DNA of 64,000 nucleotides from Candidatus Aegiribacteria sp. (GCA_013138965.1 WTBT01000058.1:815-64814), one strand, 5' to 3'. Positions 448 to 34,270 are shown, numbered from the stretch's first letter. The notes: generated from the sequence alone by a model not told the origin. Made by a program: numbers and translations.

Positions 448-3276
448 TTATCTGAGGGTTATTTCCAGTATTTTCGGTTTGCCCAGCGTTGAACCGGAAA
501 CGGGTGTAATTTTCAGAAGAACCTGGTATGACCGGTCATTCGGATTAGTGTCGAAATGCCAGATGAGTTCACCTTCGTAGTTGCCTCTGGACCTGCTGAA
601 GATATCTCCGGTTACTGTCGCTTCCTGCCACGTTTCGCCGCTATTCATGCTGAACGTAACCTGAAGATCAATGGTTCGATTTCGAGGATCGGACAATTCG
701 TATGATACAGTAACAGTGCTGTTCTGCAGGGAAATATCGCTCACAGCAGCCTGCATTACCCAGGGAAGCCTGGAATTGTTGATCGAGAGCGGGCCCGCGG
801 CTTCGGAGAAGACAGTATCCGCGTCAACGGCGCCAAGCCTTATTTTGAGTTCCATGGGCTCGATTCCCGGGAGGTCTTCCGATGAGTTCCAGGTGACTGT
901 TGAGGTGTAGGAAGAAGGTAGATAAACTTCGTTTGCGTCAAGACCTGCCGCAGGTATCCAGATGGATGAACCTTCCAGTTTATACTGCAGCGCCAGAGAT
1001 ATTTCATCATCTTCCGTGTCGGATATACGAAATGAGATTGGTACGGAACCGTCGAAGTGTTCCCAGTTTCCAGGGGATGTAACCGTAATTGACGGAAGTC
1101 TGTTATTATCCACATGGAACGGAGAAGACGGCACTGCTATTCCTGCGTCAGGGTCGCTTGGAACTGCTCTGAACTTGACCTGATAGCAATCGAACCCGGG
1201 TATGTCCACCTCAGATTCCCAGATTATCTCGTACTGATAAGTGCATGCGGTTGGAATTGAACTCTCAAGTACTGTAGCTGTATTCCAGTTCATTCCTTCA
1301 TCGGTCGAGTATTCGTATTGAATATCGAGTGGATTCTCTTCAGGATCGGTAAGCCAGACTCCAAGAGTTATCCTTCCGGATACTTCTACATCCGGTGCGA
1401 TTATCTGGCCGCACTGGAGCATGTCGGAATCAAGGTGGATATTATCGAGAACGCTCCATGGGCCAGGATCTGCATCCGCGGCTCTTACCCTCAGAGCTAA
1501 ATTTTCAATATCCATAGAGCCGATATCGTTCAGAGCGTTCCACTTGAATGGTTCTCCGTAGAACCATGAAGGTATCTCGTAGATACTGCCTGTGAGATGG
1601 GCGTTGTTCCAGGTTTCCTGACAATCGATTGAATACTGCGCCTGCAGCTGAATTACATCACTCTCTGGATCCTCAACAGCGTATTGCAGAATGTACCACC
1701 CGTCCGATTCCTCCTCTGATGTAAAAAGGTACAGGGTAGGTGGGATATTGTTGTCCACATGGAAAATATTGGAGAGGCCGCTGACGCCAGGGCCGTCGGG
1801 GCAGTAAGGTGTAACCTTCAGAGCGCACTGCTCTATGTCCTGCCTTGGAAGGTCTTCATCGCTGAACCAGATGATGCTGCTGCCGTTATCACGGAAACTG
1901 TTGGTTTCGTGCCATGAATATCCGGCATTGGTCGAATATTCAAGTGAAATACCTGTTACATTTCTGCCGCTTACTTCATATGGCAGGATCACACCACCAG
2001 AGGCTTCGAACGTTATAGTCCCGGCCCGGACAACTGGAAGGTAGGATATTCCGTAACTTCCGGAATTGGATTCATCACACATCATCTGTGGCCAGGCCCC
2101 CGTGGTGGCGCTGATACTGGATAACGTGAAGGCGGCGAGTCGGCCTGATCTGCCCAGAACCACCAGCTCCTGGTTCCCGTCACCGTCGATATCCCCTGCC
2201 GCCGGTGTTTTGGATATCGGCTGTCCAAAGTCCAGGGGGAAACCGTCAATGTTATTTCCATCCGCATTCCAGGCGTATACATATCCTATATCGGATCCCA
2301 CTATAACGCCGAGCCCGTCGCTGGTTCTGGTTATTATCGGTGCTGTAGGAAGACCGCTTGTAACGTTCGGCCAGCGCCATCTTCCGGCGATCCTTCCACG
2401 ACCGTTGATCAGTGTTACGGAACTGTCTACACATGATACTGCGAGCTGCAGCCCCGTAATATCGGGGTCAAGATGACCGATAGCCACAGCTCCCCGGGTG
2501 GACCTGTCGTCAAGAAAGAAAGGCCACCCATCAATTCTGCTGCCGCTGGAGCTTACCACATAGAGCCTGTTATTGTATGTAGCGAAGACAACATCTGCAA
2601 GACCATCGGCATCGATGTCCGCGGTTACGGGGATACTTGCGGAGGTGTACCCTGTGTTGATGGGCCATCCGGGCAGGATCGATCCTTCAAGTGACAGGAC
2701 ATATATCCTTGTCATTACCAGCGCGCATACAAGTCCGTATCCTGAATTGCCTCCAAGTGATAGTTGAGATGGCTGCCAATACAGTTTTGCAGGGAGTTCC
2801 ACAGGCCAACCGGGCAGAGGAATGCCATGAATATCAAGAAGGTGAACCCTGGAATCGGCGGAACCGAATGCGATTTCTGGGTAGGAGTCATCATCCAGAT
2901 CTACCACAGAAATACCCGTTATGATTCCAGGTCCCGCAAATACGGGCCATCCCGGTTGCTCGACCCCGCTGTGATCGACCATATGAACTGATCCGGCGTT
3001 GTCCGCGTATACTATAACATTGCCGGTGACCGGTGAATAAAATGCTGCGGGGTTTTTTGATACTCCCAGATCGCAGGAAACAGGAAACCCGTCCAGTATC
3101 TGGCCTCTTCCCGTCCATCCTCCGAGACCATGATCCCCCATTGCAATGAAAATGTCCATTGATCCTGCAGAGTTTTCAGCAAGAAGAGGGCCAGTCATGG
3201 GTAGACATCCGATGTCTGTCTCCCACTCGGGCATTTGCAGTAATAACGCTACTGAAATAAGAATGGAAATTGACAT
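448..3276 (-). CDS. Large secreted or surface protein (942 aa). N-terminal beta-propeller-like repeats with a recurring D/PGWP or DGFP motif (FG-GAP/VCBS-like), followed by Ig/fibronectin-like beta-sandwich domains.
   Basis: Long ORF with a hydrophobic N-terminus. About 7 repeats of roughly 45 aa each carry G(W/F)P. The C-terminal half is rich in beta-sandwich-like segments. No T9SS tail was recognised. Confidence 0.5.
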   Translation of the reverse strand: MSISILISVALLLQMPEWETDIGCLPMTGPLLAENSAGSMDIFIAMGDHGLGGWTGRGQILDGFPVSCDLGVSKNPAAFYSPVTGNVIVYADNAGSVHMVDHSGVEQPGWPVFAGPGIITGISVVDLDDDSYPEIAFGSADSRVHLLDIHGIPLPGWPVELPAKLYWQPSQLSLGGNSGYGLVCALVMTRIYVLSLEGSILPGWPINTGYTSASIPVTADIDADGLADVVFATYNNRLYVVSSSGSRIDGWPFFLDDRSTRGAVAIGHLDPDITGLQLAVSCVDSSVTLINGRGRIAGRWRWPNVTSGLPTAPIITRTSDGLGVIVGSDIGYVYAWNADGNNIDGFPLDFGQPISKTPAAGDIDGDGNQELVVLGRSGRLAAFTLSSISATTGAWPQMMCDESNSGSYGISYLPVVRAGTITFEASGGVILPYEVSGRNVTGISLEYSTNAGYSWHETNSFRDNGSSIIWFSDEDLPRQDIEQCALKVTPYCPDGPGVSGLSNIFHVDNNIPPTLYLFTSEEESDGWYILQYAVEDPESDVIQLQAQYSIDCQETWNNAHLTGSIYEIPSWFYGEPFKWNALNDIGSMDIENLALRVRAADADPGPWSVLDNIHLDSDMLQCGQIIAPDVEVSGRITLGVWLTDPEENPLDIQYEYSTDEGMNWNTATVLESSIPTACTYQYEIIWESEVDIPGFDCYQVKFRAVPSDPDAGIAVPSSPFHVDNNRLPSITVTSPGNWEHFDGSVPISFRISDTEDDEISLALQYKLEGSSIWIPAAGLDANEVYLPSSYTSTVTWNSSEDLPGIEPMELKIRLGAVDADTVFSEAAGPLSINNSRLPWVMQAAVSDISLQNSTVTVSYELSDPRNRTIDLQVTFSMNSGETWQEATVTGDIFSRSRGNYEGELIWHFDTNPNDRSYQVLLKITPVSGSTLGKPKILEITLR

Positions 3277-3486: not shown

Positions 3487-4428
3487 ATGAGATACCATAT
3501 ATTTACTGCTCTACTTTTATTGTCTGCTGTTATTCAGGCCGGTTCTCTTCCTTTTTCTCGCTCCGGTGTTCTGGACTGTCCTGACGCGTACTTACTGCAG
3601 CATACAGAAGTAGAAATGGAACTCGCAGCCTCAATATACTCAGTTGAAGATACAACAGGCGTTTCCAACAGCGAGTTCATGATTACCGGACACCTTGATA
3701 TAGGGTTGTTCAACTATGGTCAGATAGGAGTGTCTTTCCTTGGCGATGGCGGAATCGCAGGGAATGTAAAAGTTGCTGTGCTGCATGAGGGAATTACGGT
3801 TCCAGCATTCGCGATCGGGCTTGATAATATCACAGGAGAAAAATACATTGAATGTTTCAAGATAGATTCCGCCGGTGTAGAGCAGTTCTATCCCTACGAT
3901 CATGCGCAGAACTGGTCAGCGTACGGTGTCGTTTCAAAAGACCTCAGGTATATACTGGGGATTCCCGTTACTGTTAACCTGGGTATAGGCATAGGGCGTT
4001 TTGTGGGGATAGTGGATTCAGGGGCGCTGGGCATTGGAAGCTCTGTAGCCCATGGATTATTCGGGTCGGTTGTCTACCATCCCACAGAAGTGATCACTGT
4101 TGCCCTGGAACAGGATGGACGTGATCTGAATCTTGGGGCATCGTACGATGTAACTGATCATATTACTCTTCAGATGGCGTGGGCCGAATTCGAACAGACG
4201 ATATTCCCGGCTGAAGGTCAGAACAAGACCGATATCATGCAGAATTCAAAGGTAACATTCGGGATTCAATCAAGGATCGGACCCATTTTCGGTGCTGGAC
4301 AGATCGCCCTTGAACGTGAACGACAGCGAATTGAAAGAGCAAGAGACCGTCTGGAAGAACTCGAAGCCAGAAGAAGTGCTGCAGAAGCTGAACTTCAGAG
4401 ACTCCGCGATCTTCTTGAGAACCGCTAA
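3487..4428 (+). CDS. Secreted or outer-membrane protein of unknown function. Signal peptide, a Gly/aromatic alternating beta-strand-like region and a C-terminal Arg/Glu-rich coiled coil.
   Basis: N-terminus MRYHIFTALLLLSAVIQA. Alternating hydrophobic pattern. C-terminal segment ERERQRIERARDRLEELEARR.... Confidence 0.45.
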   Translation: MRYHIFTALLLLSAVIQAGSLPFSRSGVLDCPDAYLLQHTEVEMELAASIYSVEDTTGVSNSEFMITGHLDIGLFNYGQIGVSFLGDGGIAGNVKVAVLHEGITVPAFAIGLDNITGEKYIECFKIDSAGVEQFYPYDHAQNWSAYGVVSKDLRYILGIPVTVNLGIGIGRFVGIVDSGALGIGSSVAHGLFGSVVYHPTEVITVALEQDGRDLNLGASYDVTDHITLQMAWAEFEQTIFPAEGQNKTDIMQNSKVTFGIQSRIGPIFGAGQIALERERQRIERARDRLEELEARRSAAEAELQRLRDLLENR

Positions 4429-4445
4429 AGAAACGGCCTGATGAT

Positions 4446-7400
4446 ATGAAGCTTTGTTCTTTACTGCTTGTATTAGCCTGTTTTACCGTTGCGAATGCTC
4501 AGCCTGCGAATGATTCCCTTGAAATACCTGAGCCTGCTGATACAACAGAAACTACAAGCATACTCATGGAAAGGGTCACTGCTGACCTGCTGGAACTGGA
4601 AACCCAGATAGCCAGGGAAGAGGAACGACTGGAACGAATCATGACCGAGCTGATCCAGCTTCGAAGGCACAGCGCAATGTTTGCCAACGCTGAAAGCGCT
4701 TTCCTGCTTGGTGAAGAGCTCTACACTACAGGTTCGATAGTCTGGGCAAAAGATGCATTTGTATCCGTGGTGGATAACTTTCCAAATTCCATATACTACA
4801 CCGACGCTCTGTTCAGGCTTGAGCTTATTTCCTTTGAACTCCAGGATTATGAAAGAGCGATTGAGTACTTCAGCAGCTTGGTAGAAGCCGATCCAACCTT
4901 TAAATTCATCGATCTGGCATACATAGCGGCAGGCCTGTCAATATATAGCCAGGGGGATTTTTCAGGATCAAGATTGCTCTATAACAACATACCTCCCTCA
5001 AGTGAGTATTTTGCATTATCGGAATATCTGAAAGCGGTATCCTTTGTTGAAGAAGGCGACATTGATGCAGCTACGGTCGCTCTCAACGGGATAATCAACG
5101 GTACAGGAACCTCCTCGGAAGCTGCTGAACTGACAGACAGGGCAAGGATCGCCCTGGCTCAGATACTGGTTGATGAAAGAGAGGATTACGAATCCGCCCT
5201 CGAACTCTACTCCCGCATATCACCCTTCAGTTCCTATTACGATATCGCCATGATTGGGAAAGTATGGACGCTGATGCATCTTGAGAAATATCAGGATGCA
5301 TACGATCTTGCGGGAATAGTAATGAAGGAGATTCCGAATTCGGAGCTCATTTCAGAATTTGAACTCGCCCAGGCGAATTGTGCTCTCGGTTCTGAGAATC
5401 TGGATATAGCCATAATGATGTACAAAGACCTGCTTGCCGAATACAGTGAGACATCTGATTATTACGACCTTTTCCTGTCAGGATCATCCCTTACTCAGGA
5501 GGAGTTCGAGCTTGAAAGGGAACGTCTCGACAGGATAAGGCTGGGTCTGGTTGAACTCAAGGAGGAAGCCTATACCCAGGGTGACATGGAACTTGTCGAG
5601 ATGATCGCGAACGAGGAAGCATCACTGCGGGCGCTTTTCAGTGAAATCAGTTATCTCGAGACGATTCTTTCACTGCCTGTTGAAATGGATACCGAGGACC
5701 TGGAACATCAACTGCGTGTTCTGATCCGGGAGAGCAGAAGCAGAACAGATATCCTTACTCTTGCAGCAGGAGAAGTTCATGAACTGACAGAGATCATGGG
5801 AACCGAGCAGGATCGCCAGGACCTTATCGGGGTTGAAAGGGAGATCGAAAGAATAAGGCTTTCACTTCAGGATCTTGCGGCTAAGTTCGGGGGAGGCATG
5901 ACCGCCCAACACGACTGGATACTTGAGACCCAGTATGGGATAGCAGTGGCTACTTTCATGGAGCGCGAGCTTAAACGCGATTCCGTCAGTTATCTTGGCG
6001 CCTATTACAGAAACAGGATACAGGAAGAACTGGAAGAGGGCGATTCACTTGAAGCCGCTGTCCTTGACAGTCTGAGATCCAGGGAGATCACCTCCCTTAA
6101 CAGAAGAATAGATGAATCTGCCATTGTATGTGCAGGTTATTTTGAGGATTATCTTGCCAGCTATCCCGATTCAAGGTTCATAGCCGATATTCTTGTCAGG
6201 CTGGCTCAGCTTTACTACGACATAGACAACCTGCTGCAAAGCGAACGGCAGGCGGCAGCTGGAATTGATGAATACGTACCTGAGGATTACTCCCGATCGA
6301 TAGAGCTTTATCAGCTGATTCTTACGGAATACCCCGGCAGTGAACTGGAGGACATAGCCCTCTATTCCCTGGGATACTGCCTCGAATCCATGATGGATTT
6401 CGAGGGATCGGTTGAGAGTTACAGAAGCCTGTTGCGGGATTATCCTGAAAGCGACCTTGCCGCCGAATGCAACATCCGAGTGGGGAATTATTACTTCGAT
6501 ATTCTCGAGTACGATTCCGCACTGGTTTACTTTCAGAATGTCCTGGACTATCCAGCCTGCAGTCCCAACCTCTTCCAGCATGGTCTGTACAAACTCGGCT
6601 GGACTCAATACCTGACCAAGGACTTCAGCAATTCCATTACCACCTTCGCTTATCTGATCAGGGATAACCAGACCATAGACAGTCTGGGAATCAGCAGAAA
6701 GGGTGATATCAGGATTCTGAACGAAGCGCGGGAGTATATGGCATACGATTTTCTCGAATTGCACGGCATGTCCCCGACTGCTGTACATGTTGCCCTCAAT
6801 TTTCTAATAGAATTCGATGATTCGGTCAGCACAGTCAACGTTATTGATAAGATGGCGGAGATATCTTCAGAAATGTCCAACTGGGATACCTCTATAGAGG
6901 CGTACAAGGCTCTGCTTGCTGAAATCCCGTACTCTCATGACGCTCCAGTTTACCAGCTGAGAATCGCACAGGCCTATGAAGAACTCGGAGAATTTGCCCT
7001 TGCTGCCAATGCGCGTGATCAGCTCGTTTCCAATTACGGAGAGAATAGTGACTGGTACAACAGCGTTGGTGATGAATCGGTTTTAGCCCTGACCGATTCC
7101 TTACGGGGAGCCTCCTTCGAGGAAGCGATACAGTACTATCTTGAGCAGACTGTTGCAACGAAGGATAATCCCGTAACATTCATGCAGGTCAACAATGCCC
7201 TCATCGAAAGAATTGAAAATTATCTCAGGCAATACCCGGCTTCCTCCATGGTTTACGAGTATCAGTTTTACCTCGGTGATGCATACTATCATACCGAGCA
7301 ATACATAAATGCGGGGGACGTCTATTTTGAGGTCGCAATGGACAGCAGTTCCTTCCAGAGACAGGAAGATGCTCTCAATAACGCGTTCTCATCTTATCTG

Positions 7401-8984
7401 ATCGCCTATGAACAGGTATCGGGAGTGGACAGTCTTTCATTGAGAGAGAATCTTCGGAAAACGGTTATGGTCTACACTGTTCTTTACCCGAATGGTGAAA
7501 ATGCAGCATTCTTCCTCTGGGCTGCAGCCCCCAAGTTCTACAACGCTGGTGAATATGCCGCAGGCAGGGAGATGTTTGGATTAATCTACAATAACTATCC
7601 CCGTTCAGGTTACGAAGCGCGGTCAGCCAAGTTCATTGCTGACTCCTATCAGCAGGAGGAATTGTACGCCGAAGCGGAGGAATGGTACGGACTGGCATCG
7701 CAGGCCGCAGCTGTCAGCGGAGAGGATCTTGGGGCTGATATTGAATACCTGGCTGCCTCTTCAGCCTATAACGACGCAGCTTCTCTGGCCGAAAGCGAAA
7801 ACACTGAAGACCTGCTTGCCGCGGCGGCAAGATGGGAAGAGACAGCCCATGAGCACTCCGGGTCGGATGTAGCGCCCGTTGCGCTTTACGATGCTGCTGA
7901 AACCTACGGTAAAGCTGGTTCAATCAATGATGCCGTAAGGCTTTTTCAGGAACTCGCCATAACTTATCCCTCTTATGAGAACGCCCCAAACGGCCTGCTT
8001 AGGGCGGCCTACCTCCTCAGAGAGGATGGGCTGTATGTCAGAGGAGCGCAGCTGTACCTTGAAGCTTACAACACTTTCCCCGGTGCGCCTGATATGAACT
8101 CTGCTCTGGTCAGCGCGGCGAAATGCTACGAAGATGGAGGCAGGCAGGATCTGGCGACAGGGGTCTACCAGCAGATAACCTCTGACGGAGCAGGAACAGC
8201 CGGCACGATCATGGAAGCGTACGCAAAGATAGGTGAATACAATTACGATCTGGGGAACTACTCTATTGCCAGGAGCAATTTTGAGAACTGTATAATTATA
8301 TTCGACCAGTACAATGATGGACGGATTAAATACCCGGCAATGTCAGCCTTCATGTTTGGAGATATGTCCGCTTTGGATTACTACGCTCTGGTTCCTGTGA
8401 ATCCTGAAAACGTTGAATACAAAACACAGCTTTTCAATGGAGCTGTTGCGAATTATAACAGAACATTCTCATACCTCGATGATGATTACGTGTTCCGAGC
8501 CGTTCTGAAGATCGGCCAGCTCCAGGAGGATTACGCGAATGCCGTAGGTTTCATGAATCCCCCGGCTGGACTTTCTCCGGAGGATGAGGAGGCTTTCTAC
8601 AATGCGCTGATGGGAGCTTACGATACCTTTATTCAGAGGGCCACAGCCACATATGAGAACGGCCTGCAGCTTGCAGTGTCCAACGGTATAAGAACCGAGT
8701 ATACAGATACGATTGCTGTTAACCTTGATCTGCTTCTTCCCGGATCAAGCACCAGTGTCGGCTATTCTGTATCAACATCTGTCCACCAGGACACAACTGC
8801 AGTTGCGGATAGCGCCGGTGCAGCAATTGACGACGGATTTACTCCGGAAACAGATGATGATATCGGCGAGTCCGGAACCACGGATGAAACACAGCTCCCC
8901 GATTACGATTATATAGAGACCCCTGTGGCTGAACCCGGCACTGATGATAATGATGGAGGGGGGTGCTTCCTGTGGCCCTTCTGA
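4446..8984 (+). CDS. Giant tetratricopeptide-repeat (TPR) protein of 1512 aa with a signal peptide and an acidic Asp/Gly-rich C-terminal tail. Leads the Ton-like cluster.
   Basis: Signal peptide MKLCSLLLVLACFTVANA. Repeated Y/A/L-rich 34-aa-like TPR pattern throughout. C-terminus DDNDGGGCFLWPF. Confidence 0.7.
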   Translation: MKLCSLLLVLACFTVANAQPANDSLEIPEPADTTETTSILMERVTADLLELETQIAREEERLERIMTELIQLRRHSAMFANAESAFLLGEELYTTGSIVWAKDAFVSVVDNFPNSIYYTDALFRLELISFELQDYERAIEYFSSLVEADPTFKFIDLAYIAAGLSIYSQGDFSGSRLLYNNIPPSSEYFALSEYLKAVSFVEEGDIDAATVALNGIINGTGTSSEAAELTDRARIALAQILVDEREDYESALELYSRISPFSSYYDIAMIGKVWTLMHLEKYQDAYDLAGIVMKEIPNSELISEFELAQANCALGSENLDIAIMMYKDLLAEYSETSDYYDLFLSGSSLTQEEFELERERLDRIRLGLVELKEEAYTQGDMELVEMIANEEASLRALFSEISYLETILSLPVEMDTEDLEHQLRVLIRESRSRTDILTLAAGEVHELTEIMGTEQDRQDLIGVEREIERIRLSLQDLAAKFGGGMTAQHDWILETQYGIAVATFMERELKRDSVSYLGAYYRNRIQEELEEGDSLEAAVLDSLRSREITSLNRRIDESAIVCAGYFEDYLASYPDSRFIADILVRLAQLYYDIDNLLQSERQAAAGIDEYVPEDYSRSIELYQLILTEYPGSELEDIALYSLGYCLESMMDFEGSVESYRSLLRDYPESDLAAECNIRVGNYYFDILEYDSALVYFQNVLDYPACSPNLFQHGLYKLGWTQYLTKDFSNSITTFAYLIRDNQTIDSLGISRKGDIRILNEAREYMAYDFLELHGMSPTAVHVALNFLIEFDDSVSTVNVIDKMAEISSEMSNWDTSIEAYKALLAEIPYSHDAPVYQLRIAQAYEELGEFALAANARDQLVSNYGENSDWYNSVGDESVLALTDSLRGASFEEAIQYYLEQTVATKDNPVTFMQVNNALIERIENYLRQYPASSMVYEYQFYLGDAYYHTEQYINAGDVYFEVAMDSSSFQRQEDALNNAFSSYLIAYEQVSGVDSLSLRENLRKTVMVYTVLYPNGENAAFFLWAAAPKFYNAGEYAAGREMFGLIYNNYPRSGYEARSAKFIADSYQQEELYAEAEEWYGLASQAAAVSGEDLGADIEYLAASSAYNDAASLAESENTEDLLAAAARWEETAHEHSGSDVAPVALYDAAETYGKAGSINDAVRLFQELAITYPSYENAPNGLLRAAYLLREDGLYVRGAQLYLEAYNTFPGAPDMNSALVSAAKCYEDGGRQDLATGVYQQITSDGAGTAGTIMEAYAKIGEYNYDLGNYSIARSNFENCIIIFDQYNDGRIKYPAMSAFMFGDMSALDYYALVPVNPENVEYKTQLFNGAVANYNRTFSYLDDDYVFRAVLKIGQLQEDYANAVGFMNPPAGLSPEDEEAFYNALMGAYDTFIQRATATYENGLQLAVSNGIRTEYTDTIAVNLDLLLPGSSTSVGYSVSTSVHQDTTAVADSAGAAIDDGFTPETDDDIGESGTTDETQLPDYDYIETPVAEPGTDDNDGGGCFLWPF

Positions 8985-9469
8985 TTAATTCATTCAGATA
9001 TCTCTGTGCTACCGGAAGAACGATTCTTCTTTTAGCTCTTGTTTTTACTTCGGCTGTTACCGCAGTCTATGCCCAGACGGACGTAGAAGATAGTGAAGAA
9101 GCAAGCTGGGTAGGTGGAAGGCTCGTTCTTGAGGAGATAACGATCAGAGGAGAATTAAGGACTCCTCAGGCACTTTTCATGATGCTGAAGGCAGCCCCGG
9201 ATCTCAGGAATGTACTTCTTCAAAGAAGTTTTCTTGAAGATGTGATCAGGCCTGTTTATCCAGGCGCATTCGCCGATGAACCGAACCTGGGGGCGGGGCG
9301 CGTGATGATTACACTGCCCGCGTGGGTAAGATACGGCTCGGTCGCGGTACTTGGTGGTCTGTCAGGATATCGATATTATCAGGGTGATGATGAGCAGGGG
9401 CTGGTTTTTGGAGTCATTGCCGGCCTTGACTTAATTGGAAATCTTATACTTGATCTGGTCGGAAATTGA
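8963..9469 (+). CDS. Hypothetical small exported or membrane protein (GTG start; overlaps the TPR gene end).
   Basis: ORF with a hydrophobic N-terminal segment TILLLALVFTSAVTAVYAQ and a Gly-rich hydrophobic C-terminus. Its position in the Ton cluster supports it being real. Confidence 0.3.
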   Translation: MLPVALLINSFRYLCATGRTILLLALVFTSAVTAVYAQTDVEDSEEASWVGGRLVLEEITIRGELRTPQALFMMLKAAPDLRNVLLQRSFLEDVIRPVYPGAFADEPNLGAGRVMITLPAWVRYGSVAVLGGLSGYRYYQGDDEQGLVFGVIAGLDLIGNLILDLVGN

Positions 9470-9500
9470 AACCAGACTGCTATTCGAGAGGAGATCGTGC

Positions 9501-10373
9501 ATGAAACGGATAACACTCCCACTCTTACTTGGTATTACACTCATTCTGGCGGGAGGTTCGCTATTCGCTCAACCGGTCGATGCTGATGCACCTGCAGACA
9601 GCACCCCAGCCGATTCCATGCCGGTTGATTCTGCTTCCGTTCAGGAAGATTCGGTTGCAACCGCTCCAGCTCCAGAACCGGCTGAACCGGAGATCGTAAC
9701 AGCTGTTGAAGAGGAAGCTGAAGAAATAGAAGAGGGAGGGCTATTCTCCGATATGGCTCAGTTCTTCCGTGATGGCGGACCGGCAATGTGGGCCATTCTC
9801 ATATTCCTTGCAGCCGGAATAGCGATAGTAGTCGAGAGATTCATATTCCTGTTCTCTATTGCCGATATGAAGCCGGAAAAATTCATGGGCAGGATATCCG
9901 AATTCATAAGAAAGGGCAGTATCGAAGGAGCAATCGCCTCGTGCGCGGATAAGAGTGCTCCACTTGCCCGCATAATTGAAGCCGCTCTTAGAAATTATAG
10001 AAATACTGAACGTGATATACAGAATGCCGTTGATGAGATGGCGCTTGCGGAACTGCCCCGGCTCAATGCACGGACTGGATATCTCGCAATGCTGGCAAAC
10101 GTTTCAACCATGGTTGGCCTTCTGGGTACCATTTTCGGACTGATAGCCGCCTTCGAATCGGTTGCGGCAGCTGATCCTGCAGAAAAAAGCATAATGCTTG
10201 CAAACGGTATTTCAATGGCAATGAGTACAACAGCATTCGGATTGATGGCAGCCATACCCCTTCTGATAGCTCATTCCTTCTTTACCGCTAAGACCGATAA
10301 CCTGATCGACGACATTGACAGGTATTCTGTCATGATTATCAATATGCTTGCTCAGGCCAGGAAGGAAGGCTGA
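9501..10373 (+). CDS. exbB: MotA/TolQ/ExbB proton-channel family protein with an N-terminal signal peptide and a periplasmic acidic/Pro-rich extension (Bacteroidetes-type ExbB).
   Basis: Start chosen at MKRITLPLLLG, which has an AGGAG ribosome-binding site (RBS). C-terminal half has 3 TM helices and the MotA/TolQ/ExbB signature (...LGTIFGLIAAF...). Confidence 0.75.
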   Translation: MKRITLPLLLGITLILAGGSLFAQPVDADAPADSTPADSMPVDSASVQEDSVATAPAPEPAEPEIVTAVEEEAEEIEEGGLFSDMAQFFRDGGPAMWAILIFLAAGIAIVVERFIFLFSIADMKPEKFMGRISEFIRKGSIEGAIASCADKSAPLARIIEAALRNYRNTERDIQNAVDEMALAELPRLNARTGYLAMLANVSTMVGLLGTIFGLIAAFESVAAADPAEKSIMLANGISMAMSTTAFGLMAAIPLLIAHSFFTAKTDNLIDDIDRYSVMIINMLAQARKEG

Positions 10374-10933
10374 TGGCAAAAGCAGCGACTGGTAGAAGTC
10401 ACAGAATCAGGCATGTGTCGGAGCTTGATCTCCTCCCGGTCATGAACCTGTTTTGTGTAATAATACCATTCCTGCTTCTGAGCGCGTCATTTCTGGAAAT
10501 TACAATTATCGAGATGTCTCCAACTGAAGGCATCAGTACAGGAGCTGGAACCACAAGTCTGGCCCAGTCGGAGGAACAGCAGCTTCAGCCCAAGATAATC
10601 TTGACTAATGAGGAAATGTTTCTGGGCACGGTATTCGGAACAAGGTCAATCGGCAGAGTGTTCCTGGAAGACAGGCACGGGGAAATGGTGAACACCTACG
10701 ATTACGATGCTCTCTCTGATGCTCTCGGAGATTTCAGGGAAGAGCTTGACGGAGCTTTTCCAACCATTCCCGTGCATAAGATAACAATTCTTACGGTTGA
10801 TGATGTCCGATACGATAATATTGTTATGACAATCGATGTGTGCGCCTATCATGCTTTTGACCAGCCCGGCCTGCAGGTGGCAGCGTATAACGTACTTCAG
10901 CGACAGATCTTTGCGGGAGCAGCAGGTGAGTAA
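10373..10933 (+). CDS. exbD: ExbD/TolR biopolymer transport protein.
   Basis: N-terminal LDLLPVMNLFCVIIPFLLL TM helix followed by a periplasmic domain, typical of ExbD/TolR. Translationally coupled to exbB (ATGA overlap). Confidence 0.7.
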   Translation: MAKAATGRSHRIRHVSELDLLPVMNLFCVIIPFLLLSASFLEITIIEMSPTEGISTGAGTTSLAQSEEQQLQPKIILTNEEMFLGTVFGTRSIGRVFLEDRHGEMVNTYDYDALSDALGDFREELDGAFPTIPVHKITILTVDDVRYDNIVMTIDVCAYHAFDQPGLQVAAYNVLQRQIFAGAAGE

Positions 10934-10936
10934 ATC

Positions 10937-11473
10937 ATGAGCGCGCCAACCAAACGTCATCTCCCCCTTACGCTGGGATACAGGAAAACTAAAGCAGTTG
11001 TCAGGGGTAAGGATAAGAAGGTAACACTGAATCTTACATCCATGATTGACATGTTCACCATTCTGGTGGTCTTCCTGCTTAAGAGCTACAGTGCCGAGGG
11101 ACAAATCGTTTCACTCAGTGACGCGCTTACTCTGCCCGAGTCAAGTTCTGAACGGAAGATTGAGTTGAACCTTGAGATAATAGTGACAAATGATGCAATA
11201 ATCGTAGACGGGGAACCTATTGTATTCGTAGATGAGTTAATTTTGAGTGAAGGCAATCCCATTCCTGTCCTTGTGGAAAGACTTTCTGACCATCTGGAAT
11301 ATACCAGGCAGATGCGTGGTATCATAGATGAGACGGAAATGAGGGTTAACATTCAGGGAGACGTCGCAACCCGGGCTATTCTTCTTCAGAGAGTCATGAG
11401 CAGCTGTGCCCAGGCGGGCTACACCACCCAGAATCTGACCGTAATCAAGGTGGAAGGTGACGATGAACAATGA
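10937..11473 (+). CDS. exbD: ExbD/TolR biopolymer transport protein, second paralog.
   Basis: LTSMIDMFTILVVFLLKSY TM helix plus an ExbD-like periplasmic domain. Tandem to the first exbD. Confidence 0.7.
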   Translation: MSAPTKRHLPLTLGYRKTKAVVRGKDKKVTLNLTSMIDMFTILVVFLLKSYSAEGQIVSLSDALTLPESSSERKIELNLEIIVTNDAIIVDGEPIVFVDELILSEGNPIPVLVERLSDHLEYTRQMRGIIDETEMRVNIQGDVATRAILLQRVMSSCAQAGYTTQNLTVIKVEGDDEQ

Positions 11474-13338
11474 CACCTGATAAGGAAGGTCAAAAGAAAG
11501 TATTCGCGATTGCCATTATGCGGGACGGTAAGGTTGTCAACAAGCTGATTCCCGACAAGAAGCCTGTCAGGCTTGGCACAGGATACAATAACAATATTGT
11601 TGTTGAGGGAAACAACCTGCCTGACAGCATGGTTTTTATAACTCCCGGCGAGAATGACGAAACCTGGATTCTGAGACTCTCAGACAATATGGACGCTACC
11701 ATCGAGTCGGGAGACGGAGCGATCCTTAAATTCGCCGACCTCAGGGACCTGGGCATCTTCCCGGTTGATCCTGACGGCTTCTATCTTCTCAATATTAAAT
11801 ACCTCGATCAGGGGCAGATCGAAGTTGGTTCCTTTCTGATTCATTTTGGATTCATCATTCCCGCAAAGGAAGAGGCTAAGCCGCCGAAGAAAAAAGAGAA
11901 GAAACTGAAGGATGAACAGGCCAGAGAGAAGAAGGAAGAAAAACCGGATAACCGGGTTCTTAAGATTACCATTGAAGACCCTGGCGGAAAAACGGAGATT
12001 ATACCTAATGCCGGCCTGATGACAGTCGGCGAAGCCGAATACAATACGGTAACCGCGAAGAATGCCGGTCTGCCCAGAATTCATACACTTCTTGAACCCC
12101 ATAATAACAAGTATATCCTTAGATTGATACCCGGTATAAAGGGTGGAGTGGAGGTTAAGGGAAGCGTTCTGCCCTTTCATACTATAATCGAGCGCAACCT
12201 CATGCAGCATCATAAACCGGACGATTCCTACACCTGGATCTTCGATAAGAGTGTCAGCGGTGTCTTCACCCTCGGTAATATTGAGATATTCTTCAGTTTC
12301 ATAGAACCTCCAAAAGTTGAGAAGAAACCCGAACCCAAACCTGTGACACCCTGGAAGAAGTACATCGCCCCTGAATACAACTGGGAGGGTTTCGCCACCA
12401 GACCCCATGATGGATTGGCAATGAAGGGAAACCGTGAGGAATCCAACAGGATTGCCCTTGTTCTCGGACTTGGCCTCGCGCTTGCCTTTCTTACAGGTGC
12501 GGTCTTTGACAGATTGGTTACGGTAGTCCACGAAACCAAGGAGCAGATGCTTCGAAGTGCGCCAACTGCCCGTGTGGCTACGCTTGCCAGTCAGCCCAGC
12601 CGGACGGGGATCGGCGAGGAGATTATAGCCGATATGAACATAGGCGAGGAAACGGTGCAAGTCGGTTCCGGAGGCGGTGAACCAGCCGGAAGCGGAGATG
12701 AATCCGGTGGTGTTTCTGACGGCCAGGCCGCTGGTGAAGCCGTTCTTCAGAGTATAGGATTTGCAGCATACGGCACCGGAGGTACCGGCGGTTCTGCAGG
12801 TATCGCGACCGACCTGCAGACGGCTGCAGCAACAGGTGCCGGGCTTGCGTCCGGAGGTGCAGGAGAAGCAATGATCGCCGGAGCAGGCGGAGGTGGTTCG
12901 GGGGGCATCAGCGGTCTTATTGGAGCAGGCGGTGGCCCCAGCGCAAATATAGAGGGAGTTTCCTCAAGTGAAGTCGAGGCTGTTCACAGAGCAGCAGATG
13001 TTTCTTTCTCCACCCATTCTTCGAGTTCACAGATTGGTGTTCAGGGGAGGAGCATGAACGATATCCGACGCAAGATCAATATGATTAACATGCGGGTAAA
13101 GCGTGCTTACGAAGATCTTCTAAGAAGTAATCCAGCTGCAGGCGGGACCATTAATGTCAGCTTTTCAATCACACCGGGCGGCTCCGTTGTTGGAGTAAGT
13201 GTTTCGGCATCAGGCAGCCTTGCTACACTTGAACCGGTGGTCAGGGCTGCTGTACAGTCTCTGAACTTCGGGGTGTCCAGTGAACAGACCGAAAACATCC
13301 CGATGAGTGTACCTATGAACCTGATACCACCCGAGTAA
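11470..13338 (+). CDS. Atypical TonB-family energy transducer of 622 aa. About 330 aa of cytoplasmic N-terminus with an internal ~130 aa duplication and a Lys/Glu-rich linker, one TM helix, a Gly/Ala-rich periplasmic linker and a C-terminal TonB_C-like domain.
   Basis: C-terminal ~80 aa match the TonB C-terminal domain pattern (...VSFSITPGGSVVGVSVSASGS...). TM helix at ALVLGLGLALAFLTGAVF. N-terminal repeats WILRLSDNMDATIESGDG and YILRLIPGIKGGVEVKGS. Lies in the exbB-exbD-exbD context. Confidence 0.55.
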   Translation: MTPDKEGQKKVFAIAIMRDGKVVNKLIPDKKPVRLGTGYNNNIVVEGNNLPDSMVFITPGENDETWILRLSDNMDATIESGDGAILKFADLRDLGIFPVDPDGFYLLNIKYLDQGQIEVGSFLIHFGFIIPAKEEAKPPKKKEKKLKDEQAREKKEEKPDNRVLKITIEDPGGKTEIIPNAGLMTVGEAEYNTVTAKNAGLPRIHTLLEPHNNKYILRLIPGIKGGVEVKGSVLPFHTIIERNLMQHHKPDDSYTWIFDKSVSGVFTLGNIEIFFSFIEPPKVEKKPEPKPVTPWKKYIAPEYNWEGFATRPHDGLAMKGNREESNRIALVLGLGLALAFLTGAVFDRLVTVVHETKEQMLRSAPTARVATLASQPSRTGIGEEIIADMNIGEETVQVGSGGGEPAGSGDESGGVSDGQAAGEAVLQSIGFAAYGTGGTGGSAGIATDLQTAAATGAGLASGGAGEAMIAGAGGGGSGGISGLIGAGGGPSANIEGVSSSEVEAVHRAADVSFSTHSSSSQIGVQGRSMNDIRRKINMINMRVKRAYEDLLRSNPAAGGTINVSFSITPGGSVVGVSVSASGSLATLEPVVRAAVQSLNFGVSSEQTENIPMSVPMNLIPPE

Positions 13339-20363: not shown

Positions 20364-21794
20364 CTAAAGGGCACCCTTGCCAAAAAATATTACAGGAAAA
20401 GTCTTCAGAATCAGTCTTATATTTATGCCGTCCGTTCTCGAAAGGACGTAAATGAAATCCAGGAACTGGGATTTCTCAAAACTGAGCCTGCTTCTGCCGT
20501 AAACCTGCCATATTCCTGTCAGGCCGGGCTTTACTGTGAACCTCTGGTGCAGCCATTCGTTGGAATAATGTTCCAGCTCATAGTCGATGCACGGACGTGG
20601 TCCCACAATGCTCATATCACCCCTGAGAACATTCAGAATCTGGGGAATCTCATCCACCGATGTCTTCCTGATAATTTTACCGACCGGAGTCACTGCCTTA
20701 GAACTGACGGCCTTGAATACTTCATCGTTCTCTGATTTTACGGCCGCGTCTCCATTTACATATTTCAGGAAATACTTCTTATGTATACTCTGCCTGTCTT
20801 CGGCATCAACCCGCATTGACCGGAACTTGAAGAAACTGAAGGGTTTTTCCCTGTAACCGATCCTGGTCTGCCTGAAAAGCACACCACCGGGGCTTGAAAG
20901 GGCGATAGCAGGAATTGTGACAGCGATAACGGGCAGGAAAAGAAGCAGGCCAACAATGGCGATCAAGATATCGCTTAACCGCCAGATCGCTCTGGCTGCT
21001 TTGGTCCATCCCCTGCTGTAGAATGTAAGGGCGCCGTAATCGTTGGCGCTTATCCAGGGATCGAAGTAACCAAGCTCAAGAATTCTCCTGGAGTATATTG
21101 AAAACGGGATACCTGCGCGCTGAGTCAGCAGGGAGAAACGGGCTATGAAATTGAAATCTTCCTCATCAAACACCATAATGAGTTCCGTCGCATTTTCATT
21201 TTCAAGAACTTCCATGCACATGGTGTAGCGTTCATCAGGATCACCAGGCATGGAATTGGAATGTATCCTGATATCAAGAATGGATCTGAAAATCGGTGAT
21301 TTCAGGATGATCGCCCTGATCTTACCGCAGACGGCCTCCGTACCGAATATGACCAGCGATATCTTCCCGAATCTCCGGATCCTCAATAACCAGGGGAATA
21401 TCCGGGGTATTATTAACAGCCTGGCTGTTATGGTCATTACAAGCCAGAGTATCAGCATTATGAAAACAGCCAGCCTGCTGCAGATAAATATTTCCGTTGG
21501 GAAGTGCGTAAGAAAAAGGACAAAGATGAAAAATACTGAAATAGTTATTATCATTCTGATGGTTCTGAAGATATTCATTGCCTTGTTCAAGGTCGCTCTG
21601 ACGGCGTACAGGTCTTCCACCATCATGAACAGTATTTCAGCTATCGCAAGGAATATCCATGTTCCCGCCATTGCGGAGAATGGAGCTGAAGCAGTGTGAA
21701 TGGAACCGAATCGCAACTGAACCGCAAGAAGGATTGCCAGGGACAGTATAAGAAAATCGCTTATTAGAAGTATGAAGAAGTAGAACCTGTCCAT
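20364..21794 (-). CDS. Exopolysaccharide / undecaprenyl-phosphate sugar phosphotransferase (bacterial sugar transferase family, WbaP/WcaJ-like).
   Basis: Multi-TM N-terminus. C-terminal FKFRSMRVDAE...DEIPQILNVLRGDMSIVGPRP signature. Start moved to MDRFYFF (ATG 21792-21794) to clear the convergent DegT gene. Confidence 0.75.
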   Translation of the reverse strand: MDRFYFFILLISDFLILSLAILLAVQLRFGSIHTASAPFSAMAGTWIFLAIAEILFMMVEDLYAVRATLNKAMNIFRTIRMIITISVFFIFVLFLTHFPTEIFICSRLAVFIMLILWLVMTITARLLIIPRIFPWLLRIRRFGKISLVIFGTEAVCGKIRAIILKSPIFRSILDIRIHSNSMPGDPDERYTMCMEVLENENATELIMVFDEEDFNFIARFSLLTQRAGIPFSIYSRRILELGYFDPWISANDYGALTFYSRGWTKAARAIWRLSDILIAIVGLLLFLPVIAVTIPAIALSSPGGVLFRQTRIGYREKPFSFFKFRSMRVDAEDRQSIHKKYFLKYVNGDAAVKSENDEVFKAVSSKAVTPVGKIIRKTSVDEIPQILNVLRGDMSIVGPRPCIDYELEHYSNEWLHQRFTVKPGLTGIWQVYGRSRLSFEKSQFLDFIYVLSRTDGINIRLILKTFPVIFFGKGAL

Positions 21795-21819
21795 CTGAAA
21801 ACTTCGCTTAAGAGGCAAA

Positions 21820-22971
21820 TCAGTCCTTCTCTGAGAAATACGATTTTGCCGCTTCGGCAACGATGACCTGCTGATCTTCAGTAATATCGGGAAACATGGG
21901 CAGTGTCAGGTTGCAGGAACTGTTCCATTCCGATACCGGGAAATCCCCCGCTTCGTATCCAAGGTATGAATATGCCTTCTGGGTATGCAGGGGGATGGGG
22001 TAATGAAGGCCTGAAGCAACATTCATCTCCCCGAGGTGTTTCCTTAAATCATCCCGTTTCGGCGTGTGTATGGCATAGAGGTGGTATACATGCCTGACAT
22101 CTCCATCCTCCACAGGCAATTCAACGGGAAGTCCGGAAAGGAGTTCATTGTATCTTTTTGCCGCTTCTCTTCTTCTGTCGTTCCATTGAGAGATGTATCC
22201 GGATTTAACACCCAGTACCGCCCCCTGAAAAGCAGACATTCTGTAATTGTGTCCGATAAAATCGTAATGGTACTTCTCTCTTGAGCCGTGATCCCGCAGC
22301 GTTCTGACCCTTCCGGCGATATCTTCGGAATTCGTGGTTACCGCTCCGCCTTCGCCGAACGCGCCAAGATTTTTTCCCGGGTAGAAACTGAATGCGGCAG
22401 CCGTGCCGAAACTTCCCGCAGGTCTTCCATCCCTTGAGGCATTAACGGACTGGCAGGCATCTTCAAAAAGCAGAAGGCCGTAACGCTCAGAGATCTTTTC
22501 AAGCTCAGGCATTGCTGCAGGCTGTCCGTAAAGGTCTACAGCAAGAATTCCCCTGATCTGCGCATTGGTCTTTGGATCAACGGGCTTTCCTCCTGATGAA
22601 CAGGATTCAAGAAAGCTCTCGACCTTTTCAGGTGAGAGGTTAAGCGTATCCTTGTCCACATCCACAAAAACCGGGACATGGCCTGCCAGAACAATACCCT
22701 CCGCTGAGGCTGTGAATGTATTCGGAGGAACGATGATGCCGCTTCCCGGCTGCAGGTCGCTGGCCCACATCGTGAGATGAACGGCAGCGGTCCCGCTTGA
22801 AACGGCTATGCAGTACTTAGTTCCGGTAATTTCAGCGAACTTCTCTTCAAATGAGGCAACCTTGGGACCGAGAACGTAATAGCATGTATCAAGCACTTCG
22901 GAGAGTTCATCAGCGATTTCGTCCTTTATCTGATTGTACTGTGTTTTAAGATCAAGAAATGGTACAAACAT
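21820..22971 (-). CDS. DegT/DnrJ/EryC1/StrS-family PLP-dependent sugar aminotransferase.
   Basis: DACQSVNASRDGRPAGSFGTAAAFSFYPGKNLGAFGEGGAVTT block typical of DegT-family enzymes. Confidence 0.8.
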   Translation of the reverse strand: MFVPFLDLKTQYNQIKDEIADELSEVLDTCYYVLGPKVASFEEKFAEITGTKYCIAVSSGTAAVHLTMWASDLQPGSGIIVPPNTFTASAEGIVLAGHVPVFVDVDKDTLNLSPEKVESFLESCSSGGKPVDPKTNAQIRGILAVDLYGQPAAMPELEKISERYGLLLFEDACQSVNASRDGRPAGSFGTAAAFSFYPGKNLGAFGEGGAVTTNSEDIAGRVRTLRDHGSREKYHYDFIGHNYRMSAFQGAVLGVKSGYISQWNDRRREAAKRYNELLSGLPVELPVEDGDVRHVYHLYAIHTPKRDDLRKHLGEMNVASGLHYPIPLHTQKAYSYLGYEAGDFPVSEWNSSCNLTLPMFPDITEDQQVIVAEAAKSYFSEKD

Positions 22972-33169: not shown

Positions 33170-34270
33170 ATGGCTGGAGTTCTGAAGAAGCTGGAGATAC
33201 TCGGTAGAAGAACGCTTCATCGAGCCCTGGTTCCGGGGTGGTCTTCTGGAGAAGTACCGGAATCGGTGCCTGATGATAGGCTTCAGCGAATACTGATATT
33301 GAGGCAGGACAGAATAGGGGACATGATAATGACCCTGCCTCTTATTCGCAGAATCAGAGAGCTCTACCCCGGTATCAGAACAGGAATCGTAGCGTCGGAA
33401 TACAACAGGATCATTCTCAAGTACGAAACGGAACTGGATGTTATCACATACAGAAAGAATCCCGGGGGCTTCATATCATCCCTTGTAGAAGCCCGGAACT
33501 TCAACCCTGACGCAGCGGTTGACATGCATATGCACGATTCCACTACTTCATTCATATATGCGCTGTCTTCAGGCGCAAGGTGGAAGCTTCATATCGACCG
33601 TGAAAACAGTCTGCCCTTCAATATAAGGGTGAAAGCTCCGCAGGATGGGCATATTATGGATGCATTCGCCGGGTTGCTGTCCGGGCTTGGCAGGAAAGTT
33701 GAAACGGTTGGATTGAACAGGGAAATAACTCTTTCGAAGGAGGAGACCGGTTTCGCAGAAGACTTCTGGAACCGCTCAGGCATTCTGCCCGGAGACTGTG
33801 TGGCGGTTAACATATCCGCAGGGGGGGAGAACCGCAGATGGGGGACAGGCAGATACGCTCGAGTATGCAGCTGTATACTGGATCTGGGGCTGAAGCCACT
33901 GATACTCCACTTGCCTTCGGATTTTGAAGCGGCCTGCGCGGTACACCTCAGCGAGCCGGGCGCGCTGGTTTCACCTGTGACACCCAGCATTCTCCACCTG
34001 GCGGCCCTCATCCGGGGTGTGACCATGCTGGTTAGCCCTGATACGTCGGTAATCCATCTGGCTGCATCATGTGGAATCCCTGTAGTGGGAATGTACCTGC
34101 CATTTGATCCGTCACTTCCCAGATGGTATCCATGGGATGTGAAGAGTGAGGTGCTGATGGCATCCGACCATATCTCTCTTGATTCCATAACCCCGGAGAT
34201 GGTATCGGAAGCTGTCAGAACACTTGTTTCAGATACGGTGTACGGCGTTCAGCAAGACCCGGATCAGTAG
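33170..34270 (+). CDS. Family 9 glycosyltransferase (LPS heptosyltransferase family), tandem paralog.
   Basis: ILILRQDRIGDMIMTLPLIRRIRELYPGIRTGIVAS. Same architecture as the upstream gene. Confidence 0.75.
   Translation: MAGVLKKLEILGRRTLHRALVPGWSSGEVPESVPDDRLQRILILRQDRIGDMIMTLPLIRRIRELYPGIRTGIVASEYNRIILKYETELDVITYRKNPGGFISSLVEARNFNPDAAVDMHMHDSTTSFIYALSSGARWKLHIDRENSLPFNIRVKAPQDGHIMDAFAGLLSGLGRKVETVGLNREITLSKEETGFAEDFWNRSGILPGDCVAVNISAGGENRRWGTGRYARVCSCILDLGLKPLILHLPSDFEAACAVHLSEPGALVSPVTPSILHLAALIRGVTMLVSPDTSVIHLAASCGIPVVGMYLPFDPSLPRWYPWDVKSEVLMASDHISLDSITPEMVSEAVRTLVSDTVYGVQQDPDQ

Follow-up and report, generated by a model that had tools for sequence, protein, structure and literature searches.

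What is the role of a protein that ends much like TonB but begins with more than 300 residues on the cytoplasmic side of the inner membrane? The question is raised by a gene for a 622-amino-acid (aa) protein in a 64,000-nucleotide (nt) stretch of DNA from Candidatus Aegiribacteria sp., phylum Fermentibacterota (GCA_013138965.1, WTBT01000058.1:815-64814; the whole stretch is referred to below as the window). A first reading of this DNA, here called the original prediction, proposed that the protein is a transducer of the GltG/GltJ type that serves a specialised envelope-spanning module rather than nutrient uptake by a TonB system, and suggested structure prediction and gene-neighbourhood comparison as checks. 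We scanned the window proteins with Pfam and NCBIfam profiles and followed up the results with BLASTP, tblastn, hhalign and hydropathy analysis; an AlphaFold2 (AF2) model of the 622-aa protein was built from 30 homologues, and Foldseek was run against the PDB. We conclude that the protein is probably (at a rough probability of 75%) a distant GltG/PglI family member that acts as the inner-membrane transducer in an envelope-spanning machine of the Glt/Agl type. The original prediction is thus upheld in its central claim, on the strength of a best family match to GltG, colinearity with a GltG-like sister family and a matching order of the surrounding genes.

Results

Family and topology of the 622-aa protein

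As first read, the gene follows exbB-exbD-exbD: an ExbB homologue and two ExbD homologues are encoded upstream (Table 1), and the ATG start of the 622-aa gene overlaps the stop codon of the nearer exbD by 4 nt. The identical sequence in the databases is annotated as a hypothetical protein of a Candidatus Aegiribacteria metagenome-assembled genome. Homologues that cover the full length (51-89% identity, 615-630 aa) number more than 100 and are found in Aegiribacteria, Fermentibacter and Sabulitectum, and some relatives within the phylum carry a precomputed PF03544 match, or are annotated at NCBI as "TonB family protein" or "AgmX/PglI C-terminal domain-containing protein". Since these more than 100 homologues share the full-length architecture, we rejected the objection that the N-terminal region is a separate gene artificially joined by a frameshift. 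Hydropathy analysis identified a single transmembrane (TM) segment at aa 328-346, which AF2 modelled as a helix at aa 322-343, and no signal peptide was detected; hence, approximately 327 residues are cytoplasmic, close to the 330 originally estimated. We infer a bitopic topology with the N-terminus in the cytoplasm, one TM helix and the C-terminus in the periplasm. Ahead of the helix are two repeats that align with each other by BLASTP (aa 24-138 with approximately aa 177-290; 26% identity, E = 6e-8), and the alignment runs through the motifs that the original prediction had quoted as evidence of an internal duplication. The Lys/Glu-rich spacer that it described is also present, and sits between the two repeats.

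The best NCBIfam family for the 622-aa protein is gliding protein GltG (NF033760; E = 2e-13, 49.8 bits), matched over aa 430-600 only. A profile search yielded 834 relatives, and those outside the phylum are mostly 430-500 aa long, with one N-terminal domain, which matches either repeat, followed by the C-terminal part. On the GltG equivalog model, members of this approximately 450-aa, GltG-like sister family reach 155-191 bits, with matches to positions ~204-647, and their AgmX/PglI scores exceed the cut-off. When the family of the 622-aa transducer was compared with the sister family by hhalign, aa 156-621 proved colinear with the entire 450-aa family (probability 99.9%, E = 1.2e-32). The colinearity indicates that the conserved core consists of repeat 2, the TM helix, the Gly-rich segment and the C-terminal domain. 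To this core, repeat 1 with its Lys/Glu tether has been added as an extra copy.

The protein closely resembles GltG of Myxococcus xanthus (PglI, MXAN_4867) in overall design. GltG is 640 aa long, with an N-terminal FHA domain, a second FHA domain just ahead of the TM helix and a TonB-like C-terminal domain (PMC11761067). In an AlphaFold model, the TM helix and adjacent FHA domain of GltG are placed on the AglR pentamer, and residues 428-543, within a long disordered periplasmic stretch, lie in a crevice of the tetratricopeptide repeat (TPR) protein GltD (PMC11761067). The 622-aa protein shares the similar length, the two cytoplasmic FHA-fold domains of which the second directly precedes a single TM helix, and the long Gly-rich periplasmic stretch, poorly predicted by AF2, that leads to a TonB-like C-terminal domain. 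Its gene is likewise accompanied by genes for a GltD-type TPR protein, a GltF-type small protein and a TolQ/R-type motor with two different TolR-like subunits. However, the first FHA domain of GltG is a canonical Pfam FHA domain (5.3e-13; PMC3169522), whereas repeat 1 here is a paralogue of the juxtamembrane repeat 2. The cluster also differs from the Agl-Glt system in that the motor genes are within the same operon, GltC and GltD appear to be fused, and GltE, GltA/B/H/K, GltI/J and CglB are absent from it.

Two non-canonical FHA-fold domains

Structure prediction, one of the checks originally suggested, was informative for both ends of the protein. AF2 modelled the two repeats as beta-sandwiches, each with a predicted local distance difference test score (pLDDT) of ~80, and their Foldseek matches in the PDB are almost all FHA domains (probability ~1.0, TMt 0.5-0.6), among them those of Ki67, DgcB, Rv0020c, MDC1 and GarA. 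Positions 227-325 of the NCBIfam GltG profile correspond to aa 183-282 (E = 2.6e-5), with the N-terminal region alone scoring 23 bits. Both repeats match one and the same single N-terminal domain in approximately 100 independent proteins, and repeat 1 aligns with the lone N-terminal domain of the 450-aa relatives.

FHA domains are classical readers of phosphothreonine. Neither repeat matches the Pfam FHA model (PF00498) at E <= 1, and in a manual alignment made by eye, the GR position of the phosphopeptide site is occupied by GT or GE, and the SRxH position by PRIH in repeat 2 and PDSM in repeat 1. By the same alignment, the Arg, Ser and Asn of the phosphothreonine-peptide site appear to be replaced in both repeats. 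The absence of a Pfam FHA match, together with these apparent replacements, suggests that the repeats are non-canonical FHA-fold domains, not PilZ domains. We rejected the PilZ identity that had been proposed for the repeats, since it is supported neither by profile nor by fold: no PilZ match was found in the Pfam and NCBIfam scans or among the Foldseek matches, and the fold is instead the FHA fold described for GltG (PMC11761067). Foldseek matches that span both repeats include EssC of type VII secretion (PDB 1wv3, 5fwh), which likewise has a tandem pair of non-canonical cytoplasmic FHA domains ahead of a membrane anchor. However, the resemblance is at the level of fold only, with TM-scores of 0.24-0.25 over both domains, and the rest of the protein and its system are unrelated. 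We found no paralogues of the FHA repeats or of the transducer C-terminal domain elsewhere in the window.

A conserved Gly/Ala segment and a C-terminal domain related to TonB_C

The periplasmic region had been described as a Gly/Ala-rich linker. The composition is as stated, with 28 Gly, 18 Ala and 1 Pro in aa 413-492, but the notion of a plain linker does not hold, since no other part of the protein is as highly conserved (mean column identity 0.77, 28 of 80 columns invariant). AF2 confidence is low over aa 345-507, and pLDDT is below 50 in the Gly/Ala segment. We conclude that the segment is more than a plain or floppy linker. That the most conserved part of the transducer is its supposed linker fits a binding segment, and by analogy with GltG we infer that it may bind the TPR scaffold.

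AF2 predicted the C-terminal domain with confidence (pLDDT 83-91), with secondary structure in the order alpha-beta-beta-alpha-beta. The original description of this end as TonB_C-like stands as a weak likeness but not as a family assignment: the protein scores 15.4 bits on PF03544 against a gathering threshold of 24.6, and 14.8 on TIGR01352 against a cut-off of 27.1, and is thus below both. The AgmX/PglI C-terminal model (NF033768) fits better, at 33.8-35.2 bits (E = 2.7e-8 and ~1e-8) against a cut-off of 40. In sequence searches of the PDB, TonB C-terminal domains were matched only marginally by the C-terminal domain (E = 0.05-0.09) and at 1e-5 by the ~450-aa sister family. The Foldseek list was occupied by FHA matches, and the fold of the C-terminal domain rests on the AF2 model and sequence profiles.

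Two other relatives share this periplasmic end. A PknB-like Ser/Thr kinase of 758 aa (P0123) matches aa 447-622 at 237 bits, and a TIR and TPR protein of 645 aa (P0128) matches aa 507-622 at 149 bits, suggesting that different cytoplasmic heads use one periplasmic docking module. Separately, three relatives of 920-940 aa (P0136, P0150 and P0171) have two N-terminal FHA-like domains and a further GltG-like unit; the gene for one of them (P0150; locus L088, 10001-14928) has ExbB-ExbD-ExbD directly downstream and no TPR gene nearby. For P0136 and P0131, also among the closest double- and triple-FHA relatives outside the phylum, the contigs are so short that no neighbouring genes are visible.

Conservation of the gene cluster

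The other suggested check, gene neighbourhood, showed that the cluster is conserved in all six Fermentibacterota loci compared (the window and five others) and partly in Myxococcota and Bdellovibrionota. The five other loci, with transducers 51-56% identical to that of the window, have exactly the same eight genes in the same arrangement, and the cluster adjoins groES/groEL in the Fermentibacterota loci examined. Both the gene for a 313-aa predicted outer-membrane barrel and a divergent upstream gene for an FG-GAP protein are retained in 6 of 6 loci.

To survey named genomes, we used the ~450-aa family as query; the scan did not address Fermentibacterota genomes or Fibrobacter by name. The scan confirmed 395 loci, and counts out of 80 refer to the best 80 of these, which belong to Myxococcota, Bdellovibrionota or Bradymonadia. 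In 68 of 80 loci, a gene for a homologue of the TPR protein (E down to 1e-53) precedes the GltG-like gene, and homologues of ExbB, ExbD1 and ExbD2 lie between the two in the same order in 11-14 loci. In locus L034 the order is GltC-like (104 bits), 1139-aa TPR (GltD-like), GltE-like (100 bits), ExbB, ExbD, ExbD, GltG-like, and this gene set is the "core complex" of Luciano et al. (PMC3169522). The core complex consists of aglRQS and gltC, D, E and G, and was found in Gammaproteobacteria, Geobacter and Fibrobacter; the Agl-Glt gliding machine is thought to have evolved from it (Luciano et al. 2011, PMC3169522).

The cluster in the window resembles the core complex in being a single operon-like cluster with ExbB, two ExbD proteins, TPR proteins and a GltG-like transducer, and shares with both the core complex and the ~450-aa GltG-like loci the order TPR..ExbB-ExbD-ExbD-GltG; the Fibrobacter instance of the core complex likewise belongs to the Fibrobacteres-Chlorobi-Bacteroidetes (FCB) group. 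However, it differs in the extra N-terminal FHA-fold domain, in an apparently fused GltC and GltD, in the lack of GltE, and in the presence of a GltF-like gene and an outer-membrane barrel with a coiled-coil tail. GltF-like genes were found by Luciano et al. only in Myxococcales and Bdellovibrionales (PMC3169522).

In 18 of 80 loci (e.g. L034 12363-16763 and L045 12755-16789), the GltG-like gene is followed on its own strand, at a distance of 0.3-2.5 kb, by a gene for an FG-GAP homologue. An FG-GAP protein is not named as a Glt component in the literature examined. We considered CglD as a link and rejected it, since the CglD paper mentions neither FG-GAP nor a propeller. Directly downstream of GltG-like genes in Myxococcota is a gene for a cytoplasmic coiled-coil protein of ~300-365 aa (N-terminus MKAKRLSEV...; L034 11453-12475, L045 11363-12328 and 14 other loci) that has no counterpart in the window. 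The 313-aa barrel protein was considered as the counterpart of the ~310-345-aa protein encoded at that position; this was rejected because the latter is a cytoplasmic coiled coil, with an hhalign probability of 1%.

Genes of the cluster

The transducer gene is the last of seven plus-strand open reading frames (ORFs), from 3487 to 13338, that overlap or lie at most 17 nt apart (Table 1). The cluster is flanked by a GroEL gene on the opposite strand downstream, and by the 942-aa gene, also on the opposite strand, upstream. The latter product is a candidate peripheral or surface component. Signal peptides and the barrel model agree with the original description of the upstream genes as encoding a secreted TPR protein of 1512 aa, a small exported protein and a possible outer-membrane protein.

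Table 1. Positions in the window of the eight genes of the cluster and of the predicted parts of the 622-aa protein
Feature	Position (nt)	Strand	Basis
942-aa secreted protein with FG-GAP, BNR/reelin-B and Ig-like repeats	448..3276	-	Pfam FG-GAP, FG-GAP_3, Reelin_subrepeat-B
313-aa predicted outer-membrane beta-barrel with 43-residue C-terminal coiled-coil helix	3487..4428	+	signal peptide, AF2, Foldseek
1512-aa exported TPR scaffold, GltC-like and GltD-like	4446..8984	+	signal peptide, TPR and YbgF-type repeats, BLASTP
168-aa small exported protein, GltF/CglF-like, with hydrophobic C-terminal segment	8963..9469	+	signal peptide, tblastn, hhalign
ExbB/TolQ/AglR-like proton-channel subunit	9435..10373	+	PF01618, 1.6e-26
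ExbD/TolR-like subunit 1, Asn in place of the essential TM Asp	10373..10933	+	weak PF02472; PVMNLF
ExbD/TolR-like subunit 2, TM Asp kept (SMIDMF)	10937..11473	+	PF02472, 3.7e-11
622-aa probable GltG/PglI-family transducer	11470..13338	+	NCBIfam, homologues, AF2, Foldseek, hhalign
FHA-fold domain 1, extra copy of the juxtamembrane type	11500..11856 (aa 11-129)	+	AF2 pLDDT ~80, Foldseek FHA, BLASTP to repeat 2
Lys/Glu-rich spacer, poorly conserved	11866..11949 (aa 133-160)	+	AF2 pLDDT <50; mean column identity 0.42
FHA-fold domain 2, juxtamembrane, equivalent to central FHA of GltG	11956..12303 (aa 163-278)	+	GltG profile, hhalign, Foldseek
TM helix, single	12433..12507 (aa 322-346)	+	hydropathy; AF2 helix 322-343
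Gly/Ala-rich periplasmic segment, conserved	12706..12945 (aa 413-492)	+	conservation; GltG profile 453-628
C-terminal domain, AgmX/PglI-type, TonB_C-related	13054..13329 (aa 529-620)	+	AF2; NF033768; PF03544; PDB TonB

AF2 modelled the 313-aa protein (pLDDT 68, predicted template modelling score 0.60) with 12 beta-strands and a helix at residues 270-312, and its top Foldseek matches in the PDB are FapF (E = 2e-7), OmpG, OmpA, FadL and porins. It also has a weak match to Pfam YjbH (exopolysaccharide). For the 1512-aa TPR protein, likeness to GltD was judged by BLASTP to the protein in the GltD position of L034, since NCBIfam offered no GltD model: aa 525-1478 match aa 89-1128 of that protein (E = 2e-58). 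The stretch aa 86-345 aligns with the GltC-like protein encoded in the same locus (E = 1e-14). In 17 of 18 loci, the N-terminal match is encoded upstream of the C-terminal one, so that the TPR protein looks like a fusion of GltC and GltD. Its tail (window 8780-8984) is an acidic, low-complexity stretch of ~90 residues ending ...GGGCFLWPF, and the next ORF overlaps it by 22 nt.

That ORF encodes the 168-aa protein, whose homologues are 141-153 aa long. Residues 44-103 match, by tblastn, a small secreted ORF located immediately upstream of the GltG-like gene in eight Myxococcota loci, and these small ORFs in turn match the NCBIfam model gliding_CglF (E = 1.5e-6, under the cut-off). CglF and GltF are the same protein (PMC4488436). 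A direct comparison of the 168-aa family with the Myxococcota small-ORF family by hhalign gave a probability of 96.6% (E = 6.7e-10).

The likely start of ExbB is the ATG at 9501. This ExbB shares 44% identity with the one whose gene adjoins the GltG-like gene in Myxococcota/Bdellovibrionota loci. A hydrophobic, signal-like segment at the N-terminus of the ORF and an acidic extension of ~70 residues, rich in Pro and Asp, precede the first conserved TM helix; ExbB is 283-292 aa long in Fermentibacterota and 216-226 aa in the Myxococcota loci. The best match of ExbD1 is the first ExbD of L034 and L045, and that of ExbD2 the second ExbD. In an alignment with manually entered E. coli reference sequences, the split between an Asn in ExbD1 (the PVMNLF motif, conserved in both phyla) and an Asp in ExbD2 is seen both in the window and in Myxococcota/Bdellovibrionota (L034 8763-9863; L045 8675-9905). 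This asymmetry suggests a stator axle with a single protonatable Asp.

Elsewhere in the window, two secreted proteins (39820-42039 and 42245-43789), one of them chitinase-like, have type A sorting domains of the type IX secretion system (T9SS; Por_Secre_tail above cut-off), and these indicate that the organism has T9SS cargo. The Glt-like cluster proteins have no T9SS sorting tail, and no tie to T9SS or to Bacteroidetes-type gliding genes, a co-occurrence originally proposed as a check, was found in the cluster. Genes for polysaccharide-priming glycosyltransferases (Bac_transf/EPS_sugtrans) are located on the minus strand at 20364-21860 and 34264-35697 of the window and, together with a DegT-type aminotransferase gene, in related loci (L084 16779-19382); in the window and other Fermentibacterota loci they lie within 7-20 kb of the cluster.

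Discussion

We favour the view that the 622-aa protein is a distant GltG/PglI-family transducer. Several results weigh against this view or against its extension to the whole cluster. The GltG score is well below the equivalog cut-off of 650 bits, and the AgmX/PglI C-terminal and TonB_C scores fall just under their cut-offs. The 1512-aa protein has no direct match to the NCBIfam GltC model, and the link to GltC passes through a Myxococcia homologue that is itself under the cut-off of that model. No GltE-like gene was detected in the window by tblastn with the GltE-like proteins of L034 and L045 (E <= 0.01), and no homologue of the 313-aa barrel was found outside Fermentibacterota, including in the Myxococcota loci. 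Every protein-protein contact in the machine proposed below is a predicted one. No gliding has ever been reported in Fermentibacterota, an uncultured phylum; moreover, Luciano et al. argued that the core complex alone does not drive motility (PMC3169522).

The strongest rival is that the cluster does for Fermentibacterota what Tol-Pal does elsewhere, as a housekeeping system for tethering and constricting the outer membrane, in which the transducer would act as TolA, ExbB/ExbD as TolQ/TolR, the TPR protein as CpoB/YbgF, the FG-GAP propeller as TolB and the barrel as Pal. The ExbB protein does score higher on the NCBIfam TolQ model than on the ExbB model (76 and 52 bits, both under cut-off), the TPR protein is rich in YbgF/CpoB-type repeats (144 bits), the beta-propeller protein is a conserved neighbour, and the cluster is present in every Fermentibacterota locus examined, beside groES/groEL. 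Since the function of the core complex outside Myxococcus is unknown (PMC3169522), such a role is also compatible with the homology that we detected. However, the cluster proteins include no Pal/OmpA-type peptidoglycan-binding lipoprotein and no TolB-family match (Pfam OmpA_C and TolB, and NCBIfam), the propeller being of the FG-GAP type, and the specific homologies point to GltC/D, GltF and GltG-like proteins. A canonical Tol system, moreover, has a single TolR, in contrast to the pair of distinct ExbD paralogues here, only one of which keeps the Asp, and TolA has no cytoplasmic FHA domains. We therefore consider a Tol-Pal role unlikely.

Two further readings concern the transducer itself. 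TonB has a short cytoplasmic N-terminus, a conserved His in its TM helix and a Pro-rich periplasmic spacer. Like TonB and TolA, the 622-aa protein is bitopic, is paired with an ExbB/ExbD-type 5:2 motor and has a C-terminal alpha/beta domain related to TonB_C. The gene order after exbB-exbD-exbD, the weak TonB_C matches, and the PF03544 match or "TonB family protein" label of some relatives in the phylum could be taken to indicate a conventional, if divergent, TonB that energises TonB-dependent receptors for nutrient uptake. We regard this as the least probable of the explanations considered. TonB_C scores are under the gathering threshold, the 327-residue cytoplasmic region bears two FHA-fold domains, the spacer is Gly/Ala-rich rather than Pro-rich or helical, the TM helix contains no His, and the cluster genes encode no TonB-dependent receptor (Pfam, NCBIfam), nor a Pal or TolB partner; the conserved partners are instead the TPR, GltF-like and FG-GAP proteins, and the best profiles are GltG and AgmX/PglI. 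It is also highly improbable, in our view, that the protein functions mainly in transmembrane signalling, with FHA domains that read phosphorylation by Ser/Thr kinases and an ExbB/ExbD complex that only gates, in the style of TonB-dependent transducers. Phosphothreonine reading is the classical function of FHA domains, the PknB-like kinase P0123 and the TIR-TPR protein P0128 have almost the same C-terminal module in the periplasm as the transducer, and deletion of gltG in M. xanthus altered gltH expression (PMC3169522). However, neither repeat matches Pfam FHA, the phosphopeptide-site residues look replaced, the cluster encodes no kinase or phosphatase, and the conserved partners are structural envelope proteins.

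For the GltG-type transducer that we favour, a working scheme can be drawn by analogy with TonB/TolA and the published model of GltG (PMC11761067). Proton flow would drive the ExbB5-ExbD1/ExbD2 stator, which would engage the TM helix of the transducer, with the juxtamembrane FHA domain docked under the ExbB pentamer. A cytoplasmic partner may be recruited or clustered by the additional FHA domain at the N-terminus, held on its Lys/Glu tether. The residues that bind phosphothreonine seem to be retained in neither FHA domain. On the periplasmic side, the Gly/Ala segment would fold into a groove of the TPR scaffold and the C-terminal domain would pair with the GltF-like protein and the scaffold, such that motor work might reach the barrel in the outer membrane and the FG-GAP protein. 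Possible outputs are surface adhesion or gliding, the trafficking of a surface polymer or protein in the manner of Nfs, and envelope maintenance; a link of the cluster to polysaccharide handling is possible. The published description of Fermentibacter is of a diderm rod that has type IV pili, lacks flagella and does not sporulate, and gliding genes were not noted (PMC5030696). We tentatively suggest, as a bolder and rather doubtful extension, that the eight genes form a compact, self-contained Glt machine of ancestral type that moves or presents a surface component (gliding, adhesion or Nfs-like polymer trafficking) in this non-flagellated phylum. If so, GltF and the FG-GAP partner would date back to the ancient core and would not be additions made in myxobacteria, and the role of the Glt core complex would become directly testable in a minimal system.

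The GltG family and the core-complex concept are already known, and the cluster does not reveal a new kind of system; our literature search found no report of a Glt-like cluster in Fermentibacterota. New with respect to the known versions are the duplicated non-canonical FHA-fold domain, the apparent fusion of GltC and GltD, the gain of a GltF-like gene relative to those versions and the lack of GltE, and a barrel for which homologues were found only in Fermentibacterota. The cluster thus provides a distant version of the core complex, whose known distribution is patchy, from an uncultured phylum of the FCB group, with all genes in one short cluster. It corrects the database labels "hypothetical" and "TonB family protein" for the transducer family. 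The tandem FHA-fold domains in a lineage other than Myxococcus, the conserved Gly/Ala segment, and the GltF-like and FG-GAP proteins in common with Myxococcota could help to define the minimal working unit of this motor family.

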